The notes under the pieces: generated by a model
What the model was told of the DNA's origin: nothing
The model's input: only the letters and a program-made list of their open reading frames with translations
Database searches by the model: none
Shown here: positions 2,946 through 35,621 of the stretch, in pieces
How the letters are laid out: every line of letters starts with the position of its first letter
Position numbering within the stretch: position 1 is the first letter of the stretch
Translations under genes and position numbers: made by a program
NCBI GenBank assembly: GCA_030613605.1
Contig: JAUWLO010000001.1
Location: 1-39,289 of the forward strand
DNA length: 39,289 bases
Direction: 5' to 3'
Origin: Gammaproteobacteria bacterium
GTDB lineage: Bacteria; Pseudomonadota; Gammaproteobacteria; SZUA-152

Positions 2946-5081
2946 ATGAATGTCCAAGACTCACCCGATAACTCCCCTCAGCACATTTTACAAAGCGTCT
3001 TTGGCTACAACGAGTTCCGGCCACAACAGCAGACGATTGTTGAGCACCTGATTGCTGGCGGCGATGCGCTCGTGCTGATGCCCACCGGGGGCGGCAAATC
3101 ACTCTGTTATCAAATACCTTCTATAGTGCGCTCCGGTGTCGGCATTATCATTTCGCCGCTGATAGCCCTGATGCAGGATCAGGTAGACAGCTTACGCCTG
3201 AACGGAGTGCGGGCAGCCTATCTTAACTCTAGCCTCAGCATCAATGAAATGCGTGAAGTAGAGGGCGCACTGCACAGCGGTGAACTGGATTTGCTCTACA
3301 TCGCGCCCGAGCGACTCATGATGCCGCGCACGCTTGATCTTTTAGAGACATTGCCTGTTTCACTCTTTGCCATAGACGAAGTACATTGCGTCTCTCAATG
3401 GGGCCACGATTTTCGTCCCGAGTATGTGCAGCTCTCAATATTGCACCAGCGTTTCCCGCAGATTCCCCGCATTGCATTAACAGCTACCGCCGACAGTGCA
3501 ACGCAACGGGAGATTATCGAACGATTAGCGCTTACTGAAGCGCGGCAATTTATCAGTGGCTTCGACCGTCCAAATATTCGCTATCGTATAAGTGATAACA
3601 CCATCAACGCCCGTGAACAGCTATTGCGATTTATTCGTAACGAGCACCAGGGAGACGCCGGGATCGTTTATTGCCTTTCGCGCAAGCGGGTGGATCAGGT
3701 GGCCGCCTGGCTAACATCAAAAGGGCTCACTGCGCTGCCCTACCACGCTGGTTTACCGCAAGAGGTTCGCAAAGAGAATCAGGAACGTTTTTTGCGCGAG
3801 GATGGAGTGATTATCGTCGCAACGATTGCCTTCGGCATGGGAATAGACAAACCTGATGTACGTTTTGTTGCTCACCTCAATCTGCCAAAAAGTCTGGAAG
3901 CCTACTATCAGGAAACAGGACGCGCCGGCCGCGACAACCAGCCCGCGAATGCCTGGATGGTCTACGGTTTGCAGGACATGATCATGCTCAAACAGATGCA
4001 GGCAAATTCTGATGCCCCCGAAGAAATAAAACGCATAGAACGTCATAAGCTCGACGCCATGCTGGGGCTTTGTGAATTAACGACCTGCCGTCGTCAGGCA
4101 CTGCTGCGTTATTTTGGTGATGAATTAGAGAAACCCTGTGGTAATTGCGACATCTGTCTGGAGCCGCCCGAAACCTGGGATGCCACTGCCGCCGCGCAAA
4201 AAGCCCTTTCCTGTGTTCATCGCACCGGCCAGCGTTTTGGTGTTGGTTATCTGGTTGATGTATTGCTTGGTAAAGAACATGAACGTATCAGTCGCTTCGG
4301 TCATGACAAGGTAAGCACTTATGGTATTGGTAGTGAGCTTAATCAAAGCGAATGGCGTGATCTTTACCGCCAACTGATTGCCCGAGGCATGCTGGCAGTT
4401 GATATCGAAGGGCATGGCGGGCTTCATCTCACCGAGGAAAGCCGTCCTGTATTGCGCGGTGAACAGCCACTGCATCTACGTAAGTTTTCGAGAAAAGCAA
4501 AAGCAAAAAGCCGTGAGCGAAAAGCCAACCGTTTTACCGATACAGGAAACAACGACCTATGGGAGGCGTTGCGCAATCGTCGTCAACAACTGGCCGATGA
4601 ACAAGGCATTCCTGCCTATATGATCTTCCACGATGCCACTCTCGCCGAGATGGTAGAGAACCGCCCGGATAGCCTTGTGCAGTTATCGAATATCTCGGGT
4701 GTTGGTGAAAGCAAACTGGCCAGCTATGGCGAGCAGTTTCTCGATGTGCTCAATGAATACCGGGGGCTGGAAAATAAAACGCAAAACGATACCGAAGAGG
4801 AAACGCTGCAGCTTTTTCGCCTTGGAATGAACGCCGAAGCCATTGCCACTCAACGTGGCCTCAAAGAAACCACCATTTACAATCATCTGGCCAAAGGAAT
4901 AGAGCGCGATGAGATTCCGCTTGATAAGGTTGTGCCGCTGGAACAGAATCAATTAAAAGCGATTCGATTCGCTTTCGAACAATTTGATAGTGGTAAACGC
5001 CTCAAGCCGGTATTTGATGCGCTGGAGGGAGAGTTTTCCTACGAGGTGTTGCGGTGTGTAAGATCCGATATAACGCGTTAA
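2946..5081 (+). CDS. recQ: ATP-dependent DNA helicase RecQ (long form with extra C-terminal HTH-like domain)
   Basis: Motifs [39 protein letters not shown], a Zn-binding CRRQ..C..CDIC cluster and an HRDC-like segment ([28 protein letters not shown]). An extra roughly 100 aa follows HRDC. The track ORF starts at GTG 2916. ATG 2946 gives an N-terminus of E. coli-like length, so I prefer it (711 aa). Confidence 0.92.
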
Positions 5082-7647: not shown

Positions 7648-7776
7648 CTAGGACTCTCCGTTATTATAAAAAAATGCATTCTGTCACTTTTATCTATAAT
7701 AGGCAAAAATAACAGTAAAAATAATTACTGTGCCAATTTTCCTGTTAGTTCAATTGTTGTGGATAATTGATTGATT

Positions 7777-8667
7777 ATGACTTTATTAAAATTAAATATT
7801 ATTTTTCTGTTTTCAATTTTTTCTACTTTTTACGCAAATATGGTGTTTGCGTATGATATTTTTGCCGACAGTCACATTCATTTCAACTGGGATCAGGTCG
7901 AGGAAACGTCAGCGCAGGATGCAGTCAACATCCTCAAACAGGCCAATGTTGGCCTCACGATAGTTTCCAGTACGCCCACAGACATGGCTCTGGAATTGCG
8001 GCAAAAAGGTGGTGACTGGATAGTGCCTTTCTTCAGTCCCTACATTCATGTGTTGGGAAAACGAGACTGGTTCAGAAAAAGTGAAGTTGTTAAAAAAGCC
8101 GAACAAGGTTTAAAAAGCGGCCAATATTTCGGTATTGGAGAGGTCCATTTCATGGATGGGTTCCACCCAAAAACAGACAATACGATATTCCTTCAATTGC
8201 TCCAGTTGGCAAAAAAGTACTCTGTTCCGGTGCTGATTCATATTGATTCATCCAATGAAACCACATTTCTCAATTTATGCCTGAAAAATCCAGATATTAA
8301 GATGATATTTGCCCATGCGGGTGGAGTACTCAAACCGGCCCATATCGGAAAAATACTGTCCCAATGTGAAAATGTATGGATAGATTTCGCCGCACGTGAT
8401 CCATGGCGATATGGAGGAATAAGCAAAGAAGACCATACCCTGCTCCCGGAATGGAAAAAACTGGTTTTACGGTTTCCAGATCAATTTATTACCGGCACAG
8501 ATCCCGTCTGGAAAGTCACCCGTGGGCAAACCTGGGATTTACCAGATGAAGGTTGGAAAAAGTACGGGCAATTACTGGATTATCACTGGGCATGGATGAA
8601 TGATTTGCCCGAAGATGTCAGGCGGAAAATATCCTGGGAAAATACTAAAGCGCTACTAAAAAAATGA
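7777..8667 (+). CDS. Secreted metal-dependent amidohydrolase-fold protein
   Basis: DSHIHF near the N-terminus, and later EVHF, LIHID and FAHAGG, fit the amidohydrolase/TatD-like His/Asp ligand pattern. The N-terminal hydrophobic signal-like segment ends at ANMVFA. The track start is TTG 7771; ATG 7777 is preferred. Confidence 0.6.
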   Translation: MTLLKLNIIFLFSIFSTFYANMVFAYDIFADSHIHFNWDQVEETSAQDAVNILKQANVGLTIVSSTPTDMALELRQKGGDWIVPFFSPYIHVLGKRDWFRKSEVVKKAEQGLKSGQYFGIGEVHFMDGFHPKTDNTIFLQLLQLAKKYSVPVLIHIDSSNETTFLNLCLKNPDIKMIFAHAGGVLKPAHIGKILSQCENVWIDFAARDPWRYGGISKEDHTLLPEWKKLVLRFPDQFITGTDPVWKVTRGQTWDLPDEGWKKYGQLLDYHWAWMNDLPEDVRRKISWENTKALLKK

Positions 8668-18490: not shown

Positions 18491-18534
18491 GAAATTAATA
18501 AACGTAGTTATGATGATTAATAATATTTTATTAT

Positions 18535-18630
18535 CACAGGCATGAAAAAACCCACCCGGAGTTAATATAAACAGGTTTTTCCATATGCCTTAGCAGCATT
18601 TTGTAAAGCACCCTGCAAGCTGAAACCAAA
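18535..18630 (+). repeat. Dispersed intergenic repeat, copy A (short form)
   Basis: CACAGGCATGAAAAAACCCACCCGGAG...CAGGTTTTTCC...TTAGCAGCATTTTGTAAAGCACCCTGCAAGCTGAAA aligns by eye with 32815-32905 and 35355-35447. It lies between the convergent LysR and Tat-orphan genes. Confidence 0.8.
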
Positions 18631-18648
18631 TTGACGTAGACAGCATGT

Positions 18649-19743
18649 TCAGTTAATCGCTATCCTTTTTATTTCTTTCACAACTCCGCCAGGATTTTCA
18701 GAATAAGCACCAAGAACCTGCTGCACTCCATTTTGGTTCATATAAGCCATTACAGACTGTACGAGAGGGTATTGATTGCTAATATTTTGTGAGACTGCCC
18801 TCACAGTATTTTTTTCATCTGTGTTTCCATACTTTTGTAAGAAACTCAATGCAAGTAAGCTACCTGCTGCCTCGGTAATAGATTCACCATATACCCTGCC
18901 CATTCTCTGTGCATCATCCTCTCCTAGTGATGTTACCAACTCCCCGGTAAGGCGAAGCGTCGGCTGATGGGTAGTTAAATGTATAATTTCAGTAAAAGGG
19001 GAAATCAATGATGTGGGCCCGTGGATCACGAAAATTGTGCTGCCTATCGGTTTGTGATAAACATCATCAATAATGTAATTAATCGCTCTCTCAACAGGCG
19101 CGACATTTACTAATCCTGGCTGGATCTGTATGCCCTCTCCATTTACACCGTTAACCCTATAGACAAGGTAGGTATGCTTACCTACTAATCCCCTGTATTC
19201 TTTGGTATCTACAAATGACTTGGTGTTATGTTTTGGCAGCAAACTCCAGTCAATATTAACTTCCATCAATCCAGAAACCTGGTTGTATAAGTACTCCTGA
19301 GCAAATTTAGAATATGACAAGAGTCTGTTACTGTGAATGGATGAGTCACACACGCCATAGTGCTGATACGTCCATACAATCCGATTAGTTTTTTTCCAAC
19401 GTATACCCTGATTGGCTAGCACTTTCTTCAATAATGCGATCGGTCTCTGGTAGTTACTTTGTTCTACCCTGTTGGCAGGAAGAACAGTTTCCTTATGTAA
19501 TGCACAATATTTCTGCATTAGTGTGAGTTCATCTATTAGTGGGCCTAGCCCCTCCTGAAAGGAAAACGAGAGCCAGTTTCTATCAGGGGTATTGTTCAGA
19601 TGGATATTGCCAAGTGCGTATTTTGGTATCAATGATACTGCAGCCGTACTTGCGAGCAAATACGACAGGAATTTTCGTCGAGTAAGCTTCTCTGACAAGG
19701 ACCCCTCCTCTTCCTGCATATAAGGTGTTTCGGTAATATCCAC
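18649..19743 (-). CDS. Hypothetical protein with twin-arginine (Tat) signal
   Basis: 364 aa. LTRRKFLSYLLASTAAVSL is Tat-signal-like. The rest has no motif I recognise. The start is either GTG 19743 or ATG 19719. Confidence 0.5.
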   Translation of the reverse strand: MDITETPYMQEEEGSLSEKLTRRKFLSYLLASTAAVSLIPKYALGNIHLNNTPDRNWLSFSFQEGLGPLIDELTLMQKYCALHKETVLPANRVEQSNYQRPIALLKKVLANQGIRWKKTNRIVWTYQHYGVCDSSIHSNRLLSYSKFAQEYLYNQVSGLMEVNIDWSLLPKHNTKSFVDTKEYRGLVGKHTYLVYRVNGVNGEGIQIQPGLVNVAPVERAINYIIDDVYHKPIGSTIFVIHGPTSLISPFTEIIHLTTHQPTLRLTGELVTSLGEDDAQRMGRVYGESITEAAGSLLALSFLQKYGNTDEKNTVRAVSQNISNQYPLVQSVMAYMNQNGVQQVLGAYSENPGGVVKEIKRIAIN

Positions 19744-31951: not shown

Positions 31952-32620
31952 CTAGTGCACAAGGTTATGACGATAGGCGTAAGCTACTGCCTCTGTCTGG
32001 CTATGGACACCCAGTCGCTTCTGGATGTGTTGCATGTGATTACGGACAGTCGTCAGGCTGATCAATAGTCGTTTTCCTATAGAGGCTAGCGATATTCCTT
32101 CTGCCAGCAATTGTAGTACCTCATTTTCCCGGCCAGTAAGGCGAGAGACTACTTCATCACCTTGCCGGGTATTAGCTGGATATGTGAATGATGAGGCTGA
32201 TGGATTTCCTGCGCTCATGGCGTAATCAATAGAAGAAAGAACATCGGTGGACATGCTTCTATTAAGCAGGTGCATCACCACCCACCCCTTTTTACACATT
32301 GATGGCACCAGGACAATATTGACCGATAGAACGATCTGGTCACCCTTAGTGTCATTGGTCTTGATCGAGAAGGATTTAGGTGCGTCTGTTGCTTTCCCGG
32401 AGGCCATATCGGCAACGCAACAACCACGTTTACAAAACTGGGCATCGGTTACCGGATTGCGACCGCATATGACATCACAACATGGACGGCCTAGCACCCA
32501 ATTAGATGAGCGACCAAAAAGCTCTTCACAACCTGCATCCCAATAAATAATTCTCTGCCTGGCATCAACAGCATAGGCTCCATCTACTGCGCCATATAAA
32601 ATATCTCCAAGAATAGGCAC
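31952..32620 (-). CDS. LuxR-family transcriptional regulator with N-terminal Cys-rich PAS-like sensor
   Basis: 222 aa. The C-terminal HTH is LTGRENEVLQLLAEGISLASIGKRLLISLTTVRNHMQHIQKRLGV. The N-terminus is PAS-like (AVDARQRIIYWDAGCEELFG) and carries seven Cys in about 40 residues. The GTG start is preceded by AAGGGG. Confidence 0.8.
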   Translation of the reverse strand: MPILGDILYGAVDGAYAVDARQRIIYWDAGCEELFGRSSNWVLGRPCCDVICGRNPVTDAQFCKRGCCVADMASGKATDAPKSFSIKTNDTKGDQIVLSVNIVLVPSMCKKGWVVMHLLNRSMSTDVLSSIDYAMSAGNPSASSFTYPANTRQGDEVVSRLTGRENEVLQLLAEGISLASIGKRLLISLTTVRNHMQHIQKRLGVHSQTEAVAYAYRHNLVH

Positions 32621-32814
32621 CCTTTATCCCCTTTTATTTATTATTTAATATAGGACTTACTACATTGCTCATGTTTAAGCTCGATAGTTGAGCAAAACGG
32701 TATATTATAATCCCTCCAAACGAAACTGAGCGTTACCTGTAAATCTAGTACAGATTGAGCAAGAATCTACAGGTGATGTAAATAAATCATAAAAAATATG
32801 GAATGCTATTTTCA

Positions 32815-32955
32815 ACAGACATGAAAAAACCCACCCAGAGTTAACATAAGCAGGTTTTTCCAAACGCTTTAGCAGTATTTATAAAGCACCCTGCAATCTG
32901 AAATCAAATCGGTGCTCTAGTTAAAATATAGGTGTTCTTTGGAGAAATACAAGGC
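32815..32955 (+). repeat. Dispersed intergenic repeat, copy B (long form)
   Basis: Aligns by eye over about 140 bp with 35355-35499 (roughly four-fifths identical, one indel block). Its first roughly 90 bp aligns with 18535-18630. Confidence 0.8.
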
Positions 32956-33125
32956 GTTCTTCGAAGGAATCTATCCCTGACAGATCATCTGAAAACGTCC
33001 CCCCACTTCATCACTGTGATTTTGGTTGCAATGAGACCAGAAGAAGTCTACAACTACTACTAGATGAAACGGGTATTCCAGTTCGCTATTTTCACAACTA
33101 GCGATTAAAAGAACAAAGAACAATA

Positions 33126-33569
33126 ATGGAAAAAAGGCATGGGAGCATGAGCAGCAGATCACCTCGCTTTGGAGTATTGCACCAGAGCAATATCACCATG
33201 TTCTTTTTCAGCCTGGCGCTAAGTTTCATGTTGCTTGCGGGGGGGCTATTTGGCTCGGAGGCGCGCGCCGAATACGGTGATATCGTCCTCAATAATTATT
33301 CCGACAAGAATGGGATTCGCCCAGTAATTTTTCCTCACTGGTTTCACCGCATGCGTTACGCATGCAAATCTTGCCATAGCGACATTGGATTTCCCTTTAA
33401 GGCTGGTGGCAGTAAGGTCAACATGCTCAATATTATCAGTGGTGAATACTGCGGCGCCTGCCACAATGGCCAAATTGCCTGGTCGGTGGAAAACTGTGAC
33501 CTGTGTCATTCTGCCCTGCCGAACACGCCTACGCAGGTGCACAACAGTGTGTTAAGAGCACCGAAATAA
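33126..33569 (+). CDS. c7-type triheme cytochrome c domain protein
   Basis: 147 aa with a signal-like hydrophobic N-terminus and three CXXCH motifs (CKSCH, CGACH, CDLCH). They sit in the pattern V.FPH..H...C..CH..(19)..G..CG.CH.G..A....C..CH. The start is uncertain (33126, 33147 or 33198). Confidence 0.75.
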   Translation: MEKRHGSMSSRSPRFGVLHQSNITMFFFSLALSFMLLAGGLFGSEARAEYGDIVLNNYSDKNGIRPVIFPHWFHRMRYACKSCHSDIGFPFKAGGSKVNMLNIISGEYCGACHNGQIAWSVENCDLCHSALPNTPTQVHNSVLRAPK

Positions 33570-33592
33570 TTCAATTATGCCGATCTATTAAT

Positions 33593-34180
33593 ATGAATAA
33601 ACGCCAGATTACAATTACTTCACTTACCTTGTTCGCAGTCGCCCTGACCGCACTGATGGGTGTAGGTGTAGTCAATGCGGCGGGTAATCCTAATCCTTTT
33701 AACCGACTCTTTGTGCCACCCAAAGAGCGTGACACAGCCTTAAAGAATGACAAAATTCACGACCCCTCCGTACCTGGACTGAAGCTGTTACAGCAGCCCA
33801 AAGAAGCCTTTGCACCACTGCCTGGCAGTATAGGTGGTAACTATATTAACTGGGTGCAAGCTCTTAACAAGGGCCTCATCAAGCCTCATTTCGATCACCT
33901 TGATGCCAGCAAAGAGGCCCTGTCCATGGATCTGGTGATTGTCATGGAGGTTAAGGGCAGCATGCCCAATGTAGCCTTCCCTCATAAAGAACACACGGTC
34001 TGGTTAGAATGTACCAATTGTCATGATTCCATCTTTAAGCCATTAAAAGGCGCTAACCCCATGAGCATGGCGGAGATTATGTTGGGACAAAAGTGTGGCG
34101 TGTGTCATGGTTCTGTGGCATTTCCAGTCACAGAATGCCGTCGTTGTCATACGGAATCCAAGAAAACTGCGAAAAAGTAA
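33593..34180 (+). CDS. c7-type triheme cytochrome c domain protein (paralogue)
   Basis: 195 aa from ATG 33593 (signal peptide MNKRQITITSLTLFAVALTALMGVGVVNA). CTNCH, CGVCH and CRRCH are spaced as in the upstream gene. The track ORF start at 33503 overlaps the previous gene and was not used. Confidence 0.75.
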   Translation: MNKRQITITSLTLFAVALTALMGVGVVNAAGNPNPFNRLFVPPKERDTALKNDKIHDPSVPGLKLLQQPKEAFAPLPGSIGGNYINWVQALNKGLIKPHFDHLDASKEALSMDLVIVMEVKGSMPNVAFPHKEHTVWLECTNCHDSIFKPLKGANPMSMAEIMLGQKCGVCHGSVAFPVTECRRCHTESKKTAKK

Positions 34181-34186
34181 CTCCCT

Positions 34187-35083
34187 TTGCGACCTCAACG
34201 AATTGGCTTTTACTTCCTGCTATTTGGTTTATTGCTCTTTGCCCCACTGAGTATGGCTGATGAGCCTCGTCGCATAATCACGGCCGATGCTAGCAAATTA
34301 GGGGTGGGTCAAAATATTGGTTTTGTGGAAAAACTCATCCATGAATCTGCCGCCGCTAAACAAATCTTGAAAAGTGACAATCCAGAGGCTCGCGCATTTC
34401 AGGAAAAAGCCATCATGCATTTGGATGAAGCAAGGGCAGCTGAGAAACAAGGCAATGCCGAGGCCGTTGCCAAGGCCCTGAACAAGGCTAAGCTAGCCAT
34501 TTTTATGGGCATGCGACTTGTGGGCGGCAAGGTCGTAAAAGATAAAAAGCAGGAGAACTACAATAAAAAGCGGCATAGTCTGGAATCCTTATTGGCTGCT
34601 CATAAGCGCATACGTAAAGAAAATGAGTCAGGACAGGATTCCAGGGATGCAGAAGTCGAAACTCACACTCAGAAAAGGATGCAAGAGGCACAAGCGTATT
34701 ATGACAAGGGAGAACTGATCAAGGCCGGGGATGTGCTGAATAACGCCTATCTCAGTCTTAAACTTTCCCTGGTTAAATTACGTGATGGAAAAACGTTGGT
34801 ACGCAGCCTTCACTTTGAAACCAGGGAAGATGAATACCGATATGAATTAAGGCGTAACGACACCCACAATATGCTCATCAATACCGTGCTGAAAAAGAAG
34901 CGCGAAGATCCACGTCTTGGCAAACTCATGGATATCCCGCTCAAGGAAGCAGACAAGCTTCGTACCGAGGCAGAACAACAGGCAGGCAGCGAGAATTATG
35001 AGGCCGCCATAAAAACCCTGGAAGAGTCCACAAAACACATTATCCGCGCCATTCGCATGGCAGGTATCTTTATTCCTGGCTGA
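34187..35083 (+). CDS. Secreted all-helical hypothetical protein
   Basis: 298 aa. The TTG start lies 6 nt after the cytochrome stop. The signal peptide ends LSMA-DEP. The protein is rich in K/E/A helices, and I recognise no motif. Confidence 0.5.
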   Translation: MRPQRIGFYFLLFGLLLFAPLSMADEPRRIITADASKLGVGQNIGFVEKLIHESAAAKQILKSDNPEARAFQEKAIMHLDEARAAEKQGNAEAVAKALNKAKLAIFMGMRLVGGKVVKDKKQENYNKKRHSLESLLAAHKRIRKENESGQDSRDAEVETHTQKRMQEAQAYYDKGELIKAGDVLNNAYLSLKLSLVKLRDGKTLVRSLHFETREDEYRYELRRNDTHNMLINTVLKKKREDPRLGKLMDIPLKEADKLRTEAEQQAGSENYEAAIKTLEESTKHIIRAIRMAGIFIPG

Positions 35084-35125
35084 ATTTCCAGTTAATTAAA
35101 CAATGCGAGCAAGTGCCCCATTTGT

Positions 35126-35314
35126 TTATGGTTTGAACACAACATATATTAGTAAACAAAACATAATAATCGATATTAGCGTGACTATATTTTTTCGCGT
35201 TTTTTCATTTTTAATTACTTTTTTGAGTTTTTTATGGATCAGCCATGAAATGGCAAAATAGGAAGAAAGTACCAGTAAGCCAAATATAATTACTTTTCCT
35301 GTAATATCCGGCAC
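35126..35314 (-). CDS. Possible small two-TM membrane protein (doubtful)
   Basis: 62 aa with a GTG start, two hydrophobic segments and a Lys-rich loop. It lies in a very AT-rich stretch, so the ORF may be compositional. Confidence 0.25.
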   Translation of the reverse strand: MPDITGKVIIFGLLVLSSYFAISWLIHKKLKKVIKNEKTRKNIVTLISIIMFCLLIYVVFKP

Positions 35315-35354
35315 GATTTATTCCTTGTATTTTTAAATGGCTTTAGCCACTTTC

Positions 35355-35499
35355 ACACAGGCATGAAAAAACCCACTCAGCGTTTGCAGCAATAAGCAGG
35401 TTTTTCCTTACGCTTTAGCAGTATTTATTAAGCACCCTGCAATTTGAAATTAAATCGGTGCCTTATTTAAATATAGGACTTTTTTGGAGAAACACAAGG
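35355..35499 (+). repeat. Dispersed intergenic repeat, copy C (long form)
   Basis: CACAGGCATGAAAAAACCCACTCAG...AAGCAGGTTTTTCC..CGCTTTAGCAGTATTTATTAAGCACCCTGCAATTTGAAATTAAATCGGTGCC..TTAAATATAGGAC..TTTGGAGAAACACAAGG. See copies A and B. Confidence 0.8.
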
Positions 35500-35621
35500 T
35501 CAATTTTAAAAAGATTTAATACGTCGTCAGGCCAAAAAGTATGGATTAATAACTTAGTAAATTCAAAAATTAATCGTTTTCTGTCCTGATTATATCTATG
35601 GGTAATGTAGGACGGATATAA

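Follow-up and report, generated by a model that had tools for sequence, protein, structure and literature searches.

The window analyzed in this study, a continuous stretch of 39,289 nt from an uncultured gammaproteobacterium-like sulfur bacterium, carries three copies of a noncoding repeat. Copy A (18531-18637) lies at the end of a rhodanese-Usp-364-aa operon, copy B (32810-32958) upstream of the gene for a PAS-LuxR regulator, and copy C (35352-35503) upstream of a gene for a 62-aa membrane micro-protein. Between B and C, which form a direct repeat (32810-35503), lie two cytochrome c7 genes, the gene for a 298-aa secreted protein and the micro-protein gene. The genes downstream of the regulator form a sulfur-import cluster (Pfam Sulf_transp 3e-41, TusA 2e-17 and DsrE 3e-5). 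The features of the copies and of the adjacent genes are located in Table 1.

Table 1. Features of the three copies in the window and of the adjacent genes.
Feature	Position	Strand	Basis or remark
Copy B putative -35, TTGTAT	32947..32952	-	Block conservation; 3/6 match to TTGACA
Copy B putative -10, TATATT	32925..32930	-	CTATATTT block conserved; predicted start 1-3 nt before P1
Copy B SAM-II-class aptamer	32865..32917	-	P1 GAGCACC/GGUGCUU; L1 GAUUUGA; UUGCA; tail GCUAAAGCG
Copy B intrinsic terminator, GGAAAAACCUGCUUAU..GGGUGGG + U6	32824..32861	-	RNAfold -12.7 kcal/mol; RNAalifold consensus
Promoter-like TTGAAA-N18-TATGAT, directly after the terminator of B	32786..32815	-	10/12 match
18-nt fragment resembling the -10/start region of C, just upstream of the LuxR ribosome-binding site	32641..32658	-	Significance uncertain
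Gene for the PAS-LuxR regulator, the first one after B; heads DsrE-like/PMT-like/YeeE/TusA cluster	31952..32620	-	Pfam GerE 8.6e-16, PAS 1.4e-3
Copy C putative -35, TTGTGT	35492..35497	-	Block conservation
Copy C putative -10, TATATT, 16-nt spacer	35470..35475	-	Block conservation
Copy C SAM-II-class aptamer	35411..35463	-	P1 GGCACC/GGUGCU; GAUUUAA; UUGCA; GCUAAAGCG; A13/A18 form
Copy C intrinsic terminator	35366..35407	-	RNAfold -14.5 kcal/mol
62-aa two-helix membrane micro-protein gene, 51 nt after the U-tract of C	35126..35314	-	Homologues behind C/A-type switches
Copy A promoterless SAM-II-class aptamer	18586..18639	-	P1 ACGUC/GGUGC, 4 pairs; tail GCUAAGG (A47G)
Copy A terminator, weaker than those of B and C	18545..18582	-	RNAfold -5.9 kcal/mol

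Copy number and distribution of the repeat

Searches with nhmmer and blastn bore out the three same-orientation repeats described in the initial annotation, and all of the sequence blocks quoted there were present. A profile of copies A, B and C recovered all three in identical orientation at E-values of 6e-32 to 6e-47 (nhmmer), and A and C were 85-88% identical to B (blastn). The genome-wide nhmmer search for further copies that had been proposed yielded one more, copy D, which is more diverged and lies on another contig of the assembly, C200 (6077-6202, E 1e-15). The assembly searched comprises 2.1 Mb in 291 contigs, is 80% complete and has a G+C content of 47%. A lineage-specific covariance model (R1), built from 25 related aptamers, found exactly four copies in this genome (B 73.3, C 71.3, D 68.4 and A 48.7 bits), these scores and their E-values being circular for B, C and A because R1 was built from these very sequences. 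The 18-nt fragment that had been counted with the family does match the tail of copy C (three mismatches without gaps, or one indel; chance expectation 0.07 per window), but it is marginal and is not conserved in the closest relative, L162. The absence of coding potential was likewise true of the repeats themselves, but the 62-aa ORF directly downstream of C had not been counted.

The set of four copies was found in this genome only, and a few close metagenomic relatives share extra copies. Neither blastn nor R1 detected B-, C- or A-type copies in the 31 other genomes of the family, where blastn of copy B matched only metZ-type leaders, in three genomes. A strict exact-pattern scan gave no match in genome contigs, none in viral contigs and one in metagenome contigs (L039), and blastn of the repeat against plasmids returned nothing. 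With a looser pattern, more than 119 SAM-II-like loci were identified in genome contigs from many phyla, many of them beta-proteobacterial; none was close to B or C (best approximately 54 bits vs approximately 150 for self). The GC profile around the B-to-C segment was unremarkable.

Strand and class of the encoded RNA

Relative to shuffled controls, the minus strand of the repeats folds with z-scores of -3.0, -1.6 and -1.4, and the plus strand with +0.2, +0.6 and -0.4. On the minus strand, a hairpin of 14 pairs (AAAAACCUGCUUAU...GGGUGGGUUUUUU) is followed by a U-run, and its inner pairs are U-G and G-U wobbles. On the plus strand these wobbles would be C-A mismatches; the RNA is therefore placed on the minus strand, and a plus-strand RNA was ruled out by the fold statistics together with the wobble pairs. 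Both hairpins suggested previously have their place in this structure: AAAAACC/GGTTTTT is real but represents the outer part of the minus-strand terminator stem, and GCTTTA/TAAAGC involves the 3' tail of the riboswitch. The proposal of a small RNA was correct insofar as the RNA is structured and, if terminated, would give a transcript of about 100 nt, whereas its strand was the wrong one and the class of RNA is a known one.

At the gathering threshold, Rfam had no match in the whole window. A relaxed search of the B region identified SAM_alpha (RF00521) on the minus strand with 28.2 bits (E 1.4e-4), the SAM-II long-loop model scored 26.8 bits on the same region, and all hallmark blocks of SAM_alpha (GAUUUGA, UUGCA and GCUAAAG) aligned with copy B. 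Copy D (40.3 bits) exceeded the SAM_alpha gathering score of 36 bits, and B, C (16.2 bits) and A (9.5 bits) fell below it. Homology in nhmmer and the family-wide alignment link B, C and A to D; C and A are counted as SAM-II because they are clearly homologous to B and D, and not by virtue of their Rfam scores. By sequence and structure, all four copies belong to this class, and we consider it likely that the repeats are copies of a known RNA that senses S-adenosylmethionine (SAM), the SAM-II riboswitch, each with its own terminator and each read from the minus strand. That SAM_alpha misses three of the four copies indicates that annotation at the gathering threshold under-counts the class outside alphaproteobacteria. 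A further Rfam family, RF02424 (Bp2_287, a SIPHT-predicted Burkholderia sRNA), matched weakly to the antisense of D (C200 6070-6193, minus strand) and of C (35379-35457, plus strand); this family may be the reverse complement of the SAM-II/metXZ leader.

The aptamer would fold as an H-type pseudoknot, in which P1 closes the loop, and the loop U-run (GAUUU) and the UUGC segment would join the 3' tail GCUAAAG in a triple helix that surrounds bound SAM. Five core P1 pairs are kept in all 25 aligned aptamers, and pair 5-32 is G-C in 17 of them, A-U in five and G-U in three. When the 3' partners were slid by one to three columns as a control, pairing dropped to 38-50%, compared with 89.8% for the structure itself. 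RNAalifold recovered P1 and the terminator as consensus. The SAM-II structure predicts four pseudoknot pairs; these do not vary among the 25 aptamers, and thus speak neither for nor against the pairing itself. The pseudoknot and triplex nucleotides (the L1 U-run, UUGC, and GCUAAAG with U44, A45 and A46) are likewise invariant in B, C, D and all relatives; in copy A of the window, U44-A46 are kept and A47 is changed to G.

Two differences separate the aptamer cores of B and C, at the base after GAUUU and at the base two before UUGC (G/G in B, A/A in C). Among 110 distinct SAM-II-like aptamers of many phyla, these two positions covary as homopurines (A/A in 56, G/G in 36, G/A in four and A/G in none; Fisher 3e-22, uncorrected for relatedness), and the B-C difference is therefore a coordinated change that preserves the fold. 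The covariation suggests a non-Watson-Crick purine-purine contact.

Among the loci in genome contigs (such as L156:4685-6254, L085 and L120:1700-1960), the A13-type aptamer was often the second unit of a tandem pair. The A13/A18 subtype was located upstream of MoxR-type AAA_5 ATPases in 16 of 50 loci, and the A13 type also preceded NB-ARC/STAND NTPase (L120), RadC, ADP-ribosylglycohydrolase, FGase and metK genes, many of which are non-methionine genes.

B and C appear to be full cassettes consisting of a sigma70-type promoter, an aptamer of about 53 nt and a terminator, and in A an aptamer and a terminator directly follow a gene. In B and C, the -35-like (TTGTAT/TTGTGT) and -10 (TATATT) elements, separated by 16 nt, are found on the minus strand in what had been called the tail of the repeat. 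Among five cassettes with such a promoter (B, C and those in L039, L159 and L162), the promoter blocks are conserved, with CCTTG(T/C)(A/G)TTT at the -35 position, and the spacer varies. Homology between cassettes extends from the -35 element to approximately 15 nt past the U-run (CAUGCCUGU..). The proposed promoters and terminators are not among the sites called by simple scanners. A sigma54 promoter in AAGCACCCTGCAA was considered and rejected by eye on account of its wrong spacing.

Gene neighborhoods of the four copies

On one side of copy D is purF; on the other, directly downstream, is a 398-aa gene identified as metZ by its match, at 707 bits, to NF006003, the O-succinylhomoserine sulfhydrylase equivalog. 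Searching the 32 genomes of the family with R1, we found a single strong copy in 30 of the 31 others, and in all 25 single-copy relatives fetched it precedes a metZ orthologue (66-82% identity). The design of D is the same in those 25: a TTGAC promoter, GCGCCGAUUUGA..CAGCUUGCGGGCGC..GCUAAAGCG, and then AACCUGCUUUGGC..GCGGGUUUUUUU. The copy in the metZ leader is the ancestral, family-wide arrangement. In D-type leaders, the 5' half of the terminator (CCUGCUUURGC) is matched by a complementary tail, GCUAAAGCGAGG. The antiterminator reached -13.0 kcal/mol in RNAfold vs -12.1 kcal/mol for the terminator, and the fold flipped to the terminator when the tail and L1 were masked. In this folding model, the D-type balance is standard OFF-switch logic, like that predicted for metZ of Sinorhizobium meliloti (PMC9373788), and D would gate metZ by SAM-controlled termination.

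Copy B is a recent insertion. A B-orthologous cassette is present in L162, whose LuxR protein is 92% identical, and relatives with LuxR at 77-86% identity have no cassette but share the LuxR leader of about 190 nt, so that the insertion point lies upstream of it. When the window is compared with L162, the B aptamer is the best-conserved noncoding stretch (92% identical vs 74.5% for the adjacent leader; Fisher p 0.005). The leader itself (32621-32815, minus strand; ATGATTAATTTGCATCATGTATAGATTC...GTACTAGATTTA...) is conserved down to 77% protein identity and starts with the 10/12 sigma70-like site; it probably holds the promoter and operator of the regulator, the promoter probably being TTGAAA-N18-TATGAT. 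As B lies upstream of this apparent promoter, its effect in cis may be small. B would feed SAM-dependent read-through into the PAS-LuxR gene and, via or with LuxR, into the YeeE/TusA/DsrE cluster; it may make LuxR transcription partly SAM-dependent, or function mainly as a small RNA. Inclusion of a sulfur-import cluster in the SAM regulon would make metabolic sense. L163 and L165, which have no cassette B, are also without the cytochrome operon beside LuxR, so that recombination between cassette copies may have brought in the segment from B to C.

The gene controlled by C is most likely that of the micro-protein, and C would gate this protein by SAM. A C-type switch precedes a micro-protein homologue in L039, L159/L160 and L161, and in five organisms the micro-protein (62-66 aa) is always behind a SAM-II-type switch (homologues at L039:1983-2171, L159:1678-1878, L161:90-290 and L170 approximately 2990-3180). 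In L039, a LigB-type (4,5-DOPA-dioxygenase-like) gene stands between the switch and the micro-protein gene, and the stop and start codons of the two genes overlap. Differences among the micro-protein genes are distributed over the three codon positions as 12/3/28, a pattern that indicates a real coding gene under purifying selection. The family is very rare, with four clusters among 1.84 billion representatives in a full HMMER scan, and Pfam and NCBIfam had no match for the micro-protein or for the 364-aa protein next to copy A. An amidohydrolase gene located beside the micro-protein gene in L039 (2172-3128) and L159 is 80% identical to one at 7771-8667 (plus strand) of the window, 27 kb away from the micro-protein gene there, and gene order around the module thus appears fluid among close relatives.

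No promoter belongs to copy A, whose P1 begins 12 nt past the stop codon (18649-18651) of the 364-aa gene. It is not truncated: the 5' strand of P1 is present as ACGUC and pairs via G-U wobbles. An A-type switch with GCUAAAG is retained at the orthologous locus of L169, L170 and L171, at protein identities of 92-75%, and in L170 the switch is followed by a micro-protein gene; in the present genome, A has no gene downstream to regulate. A and B share a derived terminator loop (a 4-nt deletion giving UUAAC; 18551-18582 and 32830-32861) that is absent from the orthologues in L169-L171 and L162, and from C. A loop shared by A and B and missing from their positional orthologues points to gene conversion, which probably occurred between these dispersed copies.

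Switching mechanism, alternatives and biological meaning

According to the proposed mechanism, high SAM would lock the tail in the pseudoknot, the terminator would form, and transcription would stop, leaving an RNA of about 100 nt. At low SAM, pairing of the free tail (AAAGCG) with the terminator's 5' half, CCUGCUU, would allow read-through. In B and C, the antiterminator AAGCG/UGCUU reaches -4.0 kcal/mol vs -12.7 and -14.5 kcal/mol for the terminators, and in RNAfold the terminator forms regardless of whether the tail is available. With an antiterminator so weak against terminators so strong, termination should be the default in these two copies, and SAM dependence is not evident from the thermodynamics. 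However, the conservation of the micro-protein gene, for which no other promoter is visible, implies that read-through must occur. None of the genes downstream of B, C and A is a methionine or SAM gene.

A possible though somewhat doubtful alternative is that B, and perhaps C and A, function mainly as stand-alone SAM-binding small RNAs that act in trans or buffer SAM, with read-through being incidental. It would fit the organization of B as a complete promoter-to-terminator unit upstream of the conserved LuxR leader and its 10/12 promoter match, as well as the conservation of the aptamer in spite of strong terminators and weak antiterminators. SreA and SreB of Listeria, SAM-I riboswitches that act in trans, provide a precedent for a terminated riboswitch RNA as a regulator; their aptamer class differs, and the possible likeness, for copy B, is the terminated transcript. 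Riboswitch-derived RNAs (RZ and RA) also accumulate in S. meliloti (PMC9373788). On the other hand, the micro-protein gene, which in five organisms lies 50-100 nt behind a switch or directly behind the dioxygenase gene that does, favors regulation in cis, and a small-RNA role is in any case compatible with the riboswitch explanation. We regard it as unlikely that the extra copies are recent, decaying riboswitch duplicates that serve as a generic promoter (B and C) or terminator (A), with ligand sensing no longer under selection. Their confinement to one species-level lineage, the low Rfam scores of C and A, the exchange of sequence between A and B, and the state of copy A (A47G, a P1 of four pairs, a weak terminator and no downstream gene) would agree with decay. 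Against decay, eight of nine copies of the B/C/A type, drawn from at least five organisms, have all triplex and pseudoknot nucleotides intact, a coordinated homopurine change separates B from C, the aptamer is better conserved than any other noncoding stretch in the comparison with L162, and copies at the A locus are retained at the orthologous position down to 75% protein identity.

The unusual gene neighbors (the LuxR/sulfur-import cluster, the micro-protein and the LigB-type dioxygenase in L039) could also be explained if the B/C/A type were a SAM-II variant for a different ligand, and variant riboswitches with altered ligands are known, such as the SAM-I variants sensing spermidine (PMC10853860). 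We find this very improbable, as the SAM contacts (U10-U12, U20, U21, G22, C23, U44, A45 and A46; PMC3303485, PMC6061858) are unchanged, and A13/A18 is a common isosteric form that occurs in many phyla and also ahead of metK; an altered ligand was rejected since no contact nucleotide differs. Least credible of all, in our opinion, is the view of the repeats as a MITE or as a portable plus-strand promoter driving the cytochrome c7 operon from B, both of which figured in the initial annotation. The cassette does occur at different loci in related organisms, and copy B contains a sigma70-like plus-strand match, CTGAAA-N18-TAAAAT (9/12). This match, however, lies inside the DNA encoding the aptamer, which accounts for its conservation, and the plus strand folds no better than shuffled sequences; the putative promoter in the tail points leftwards, on the minus strand, and would drive the riboswitch instead of the cytochrome operon. 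The two ends of the cassette (CCTTG... and ...CATGCCTGT) do not form inverted repeats, comparison with cassette-free relatives revealed no target duplication at the B insertion, the copies number only four genome-wide, and none was detected in viral contigs or plasmids. A SAM-II riboswitch with its own terminator on the minus strand is the explanation we prefer, and B, C and A would be expected to bind SAM.

Several aspects of such units have been described. The SAM-II riboswitch of S. meliloti metZ is predicted to terminate transcription on SAM binding, yielding the sRNA RZ, which is higher under high SAM (PMC9373788). The present copies resemble RF00521 and this leader in their aptamer blocks, H-type pseudoknot, intrinsic terminator and small RNA upon termination, and copy D also in its association with metZ. 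In contrast, the host is not an alphaproteobacterium, and three further copies, all below the Rfam threshold, stand at non-methionine genes. The metXZ leader of beta-proteobacteria was treated by Leyn et al. (2014) as a new element distinct from SAM-II, and relocation between genes was proposed (PMC4239095). Its similarity lies in a conserved leader that forms a pseudoknot, precedes a terminator and occurs as a single copy before metX or metZ; from this description, it may be of the D type. Tandem SAM-II/SAM-II and SAM-II/SAM-V doublets were reported by Sherlock et al. (2022) (PMC9481103). In the widespread tandem loci, a D-like unit with a terminator is followed by an A13-type unit, and B/C/A-type copies resemble the second unit, but the units of the window are dispersed singly with their own terminators and without a shared leader. 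Thus, transcriptional SAM-II units, duplications within a family, relocation between met genes and tandem pairs are already known (PMC4239095, PMC9481103); what is new here is local, namely four copies in a small genome, the spread of whole cassettes, the unusual downstream genes, and the fact that Rfam misses three of the four.

With these results, an apparently novel repeat family becomes annotated regulation, and four unannotated riboswitches are added to the genome. The YeeE/TusA/DsrE cluster (via PAS-LuxR) and the micro-protein come under likely SAM control, which hints at a role in sulfur supply for methionine and SAM. A riboswitch that spreads as a promoter-to-terminator cassette, with sequence exchange between copies, also bears on how regulons grow. 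We tentatively propose, as a possibility short of a probable conclusion, that the B/C/A unit is a portable SAM-sensing module that in one lineage has been copied, moved and homogenized by gene conversion, that it wires a LuxR regulator and a micro-protein into the SAM regulon, and that it belongs to the widespread A13/A18 subtype found in many phyla before non-metabolic genes (MoxR-type ATPases, STAND NTPase and RadC). If so, the SAM level would serve as a general physiological or stress signal, beyond the feedback control of methionine synthesis.
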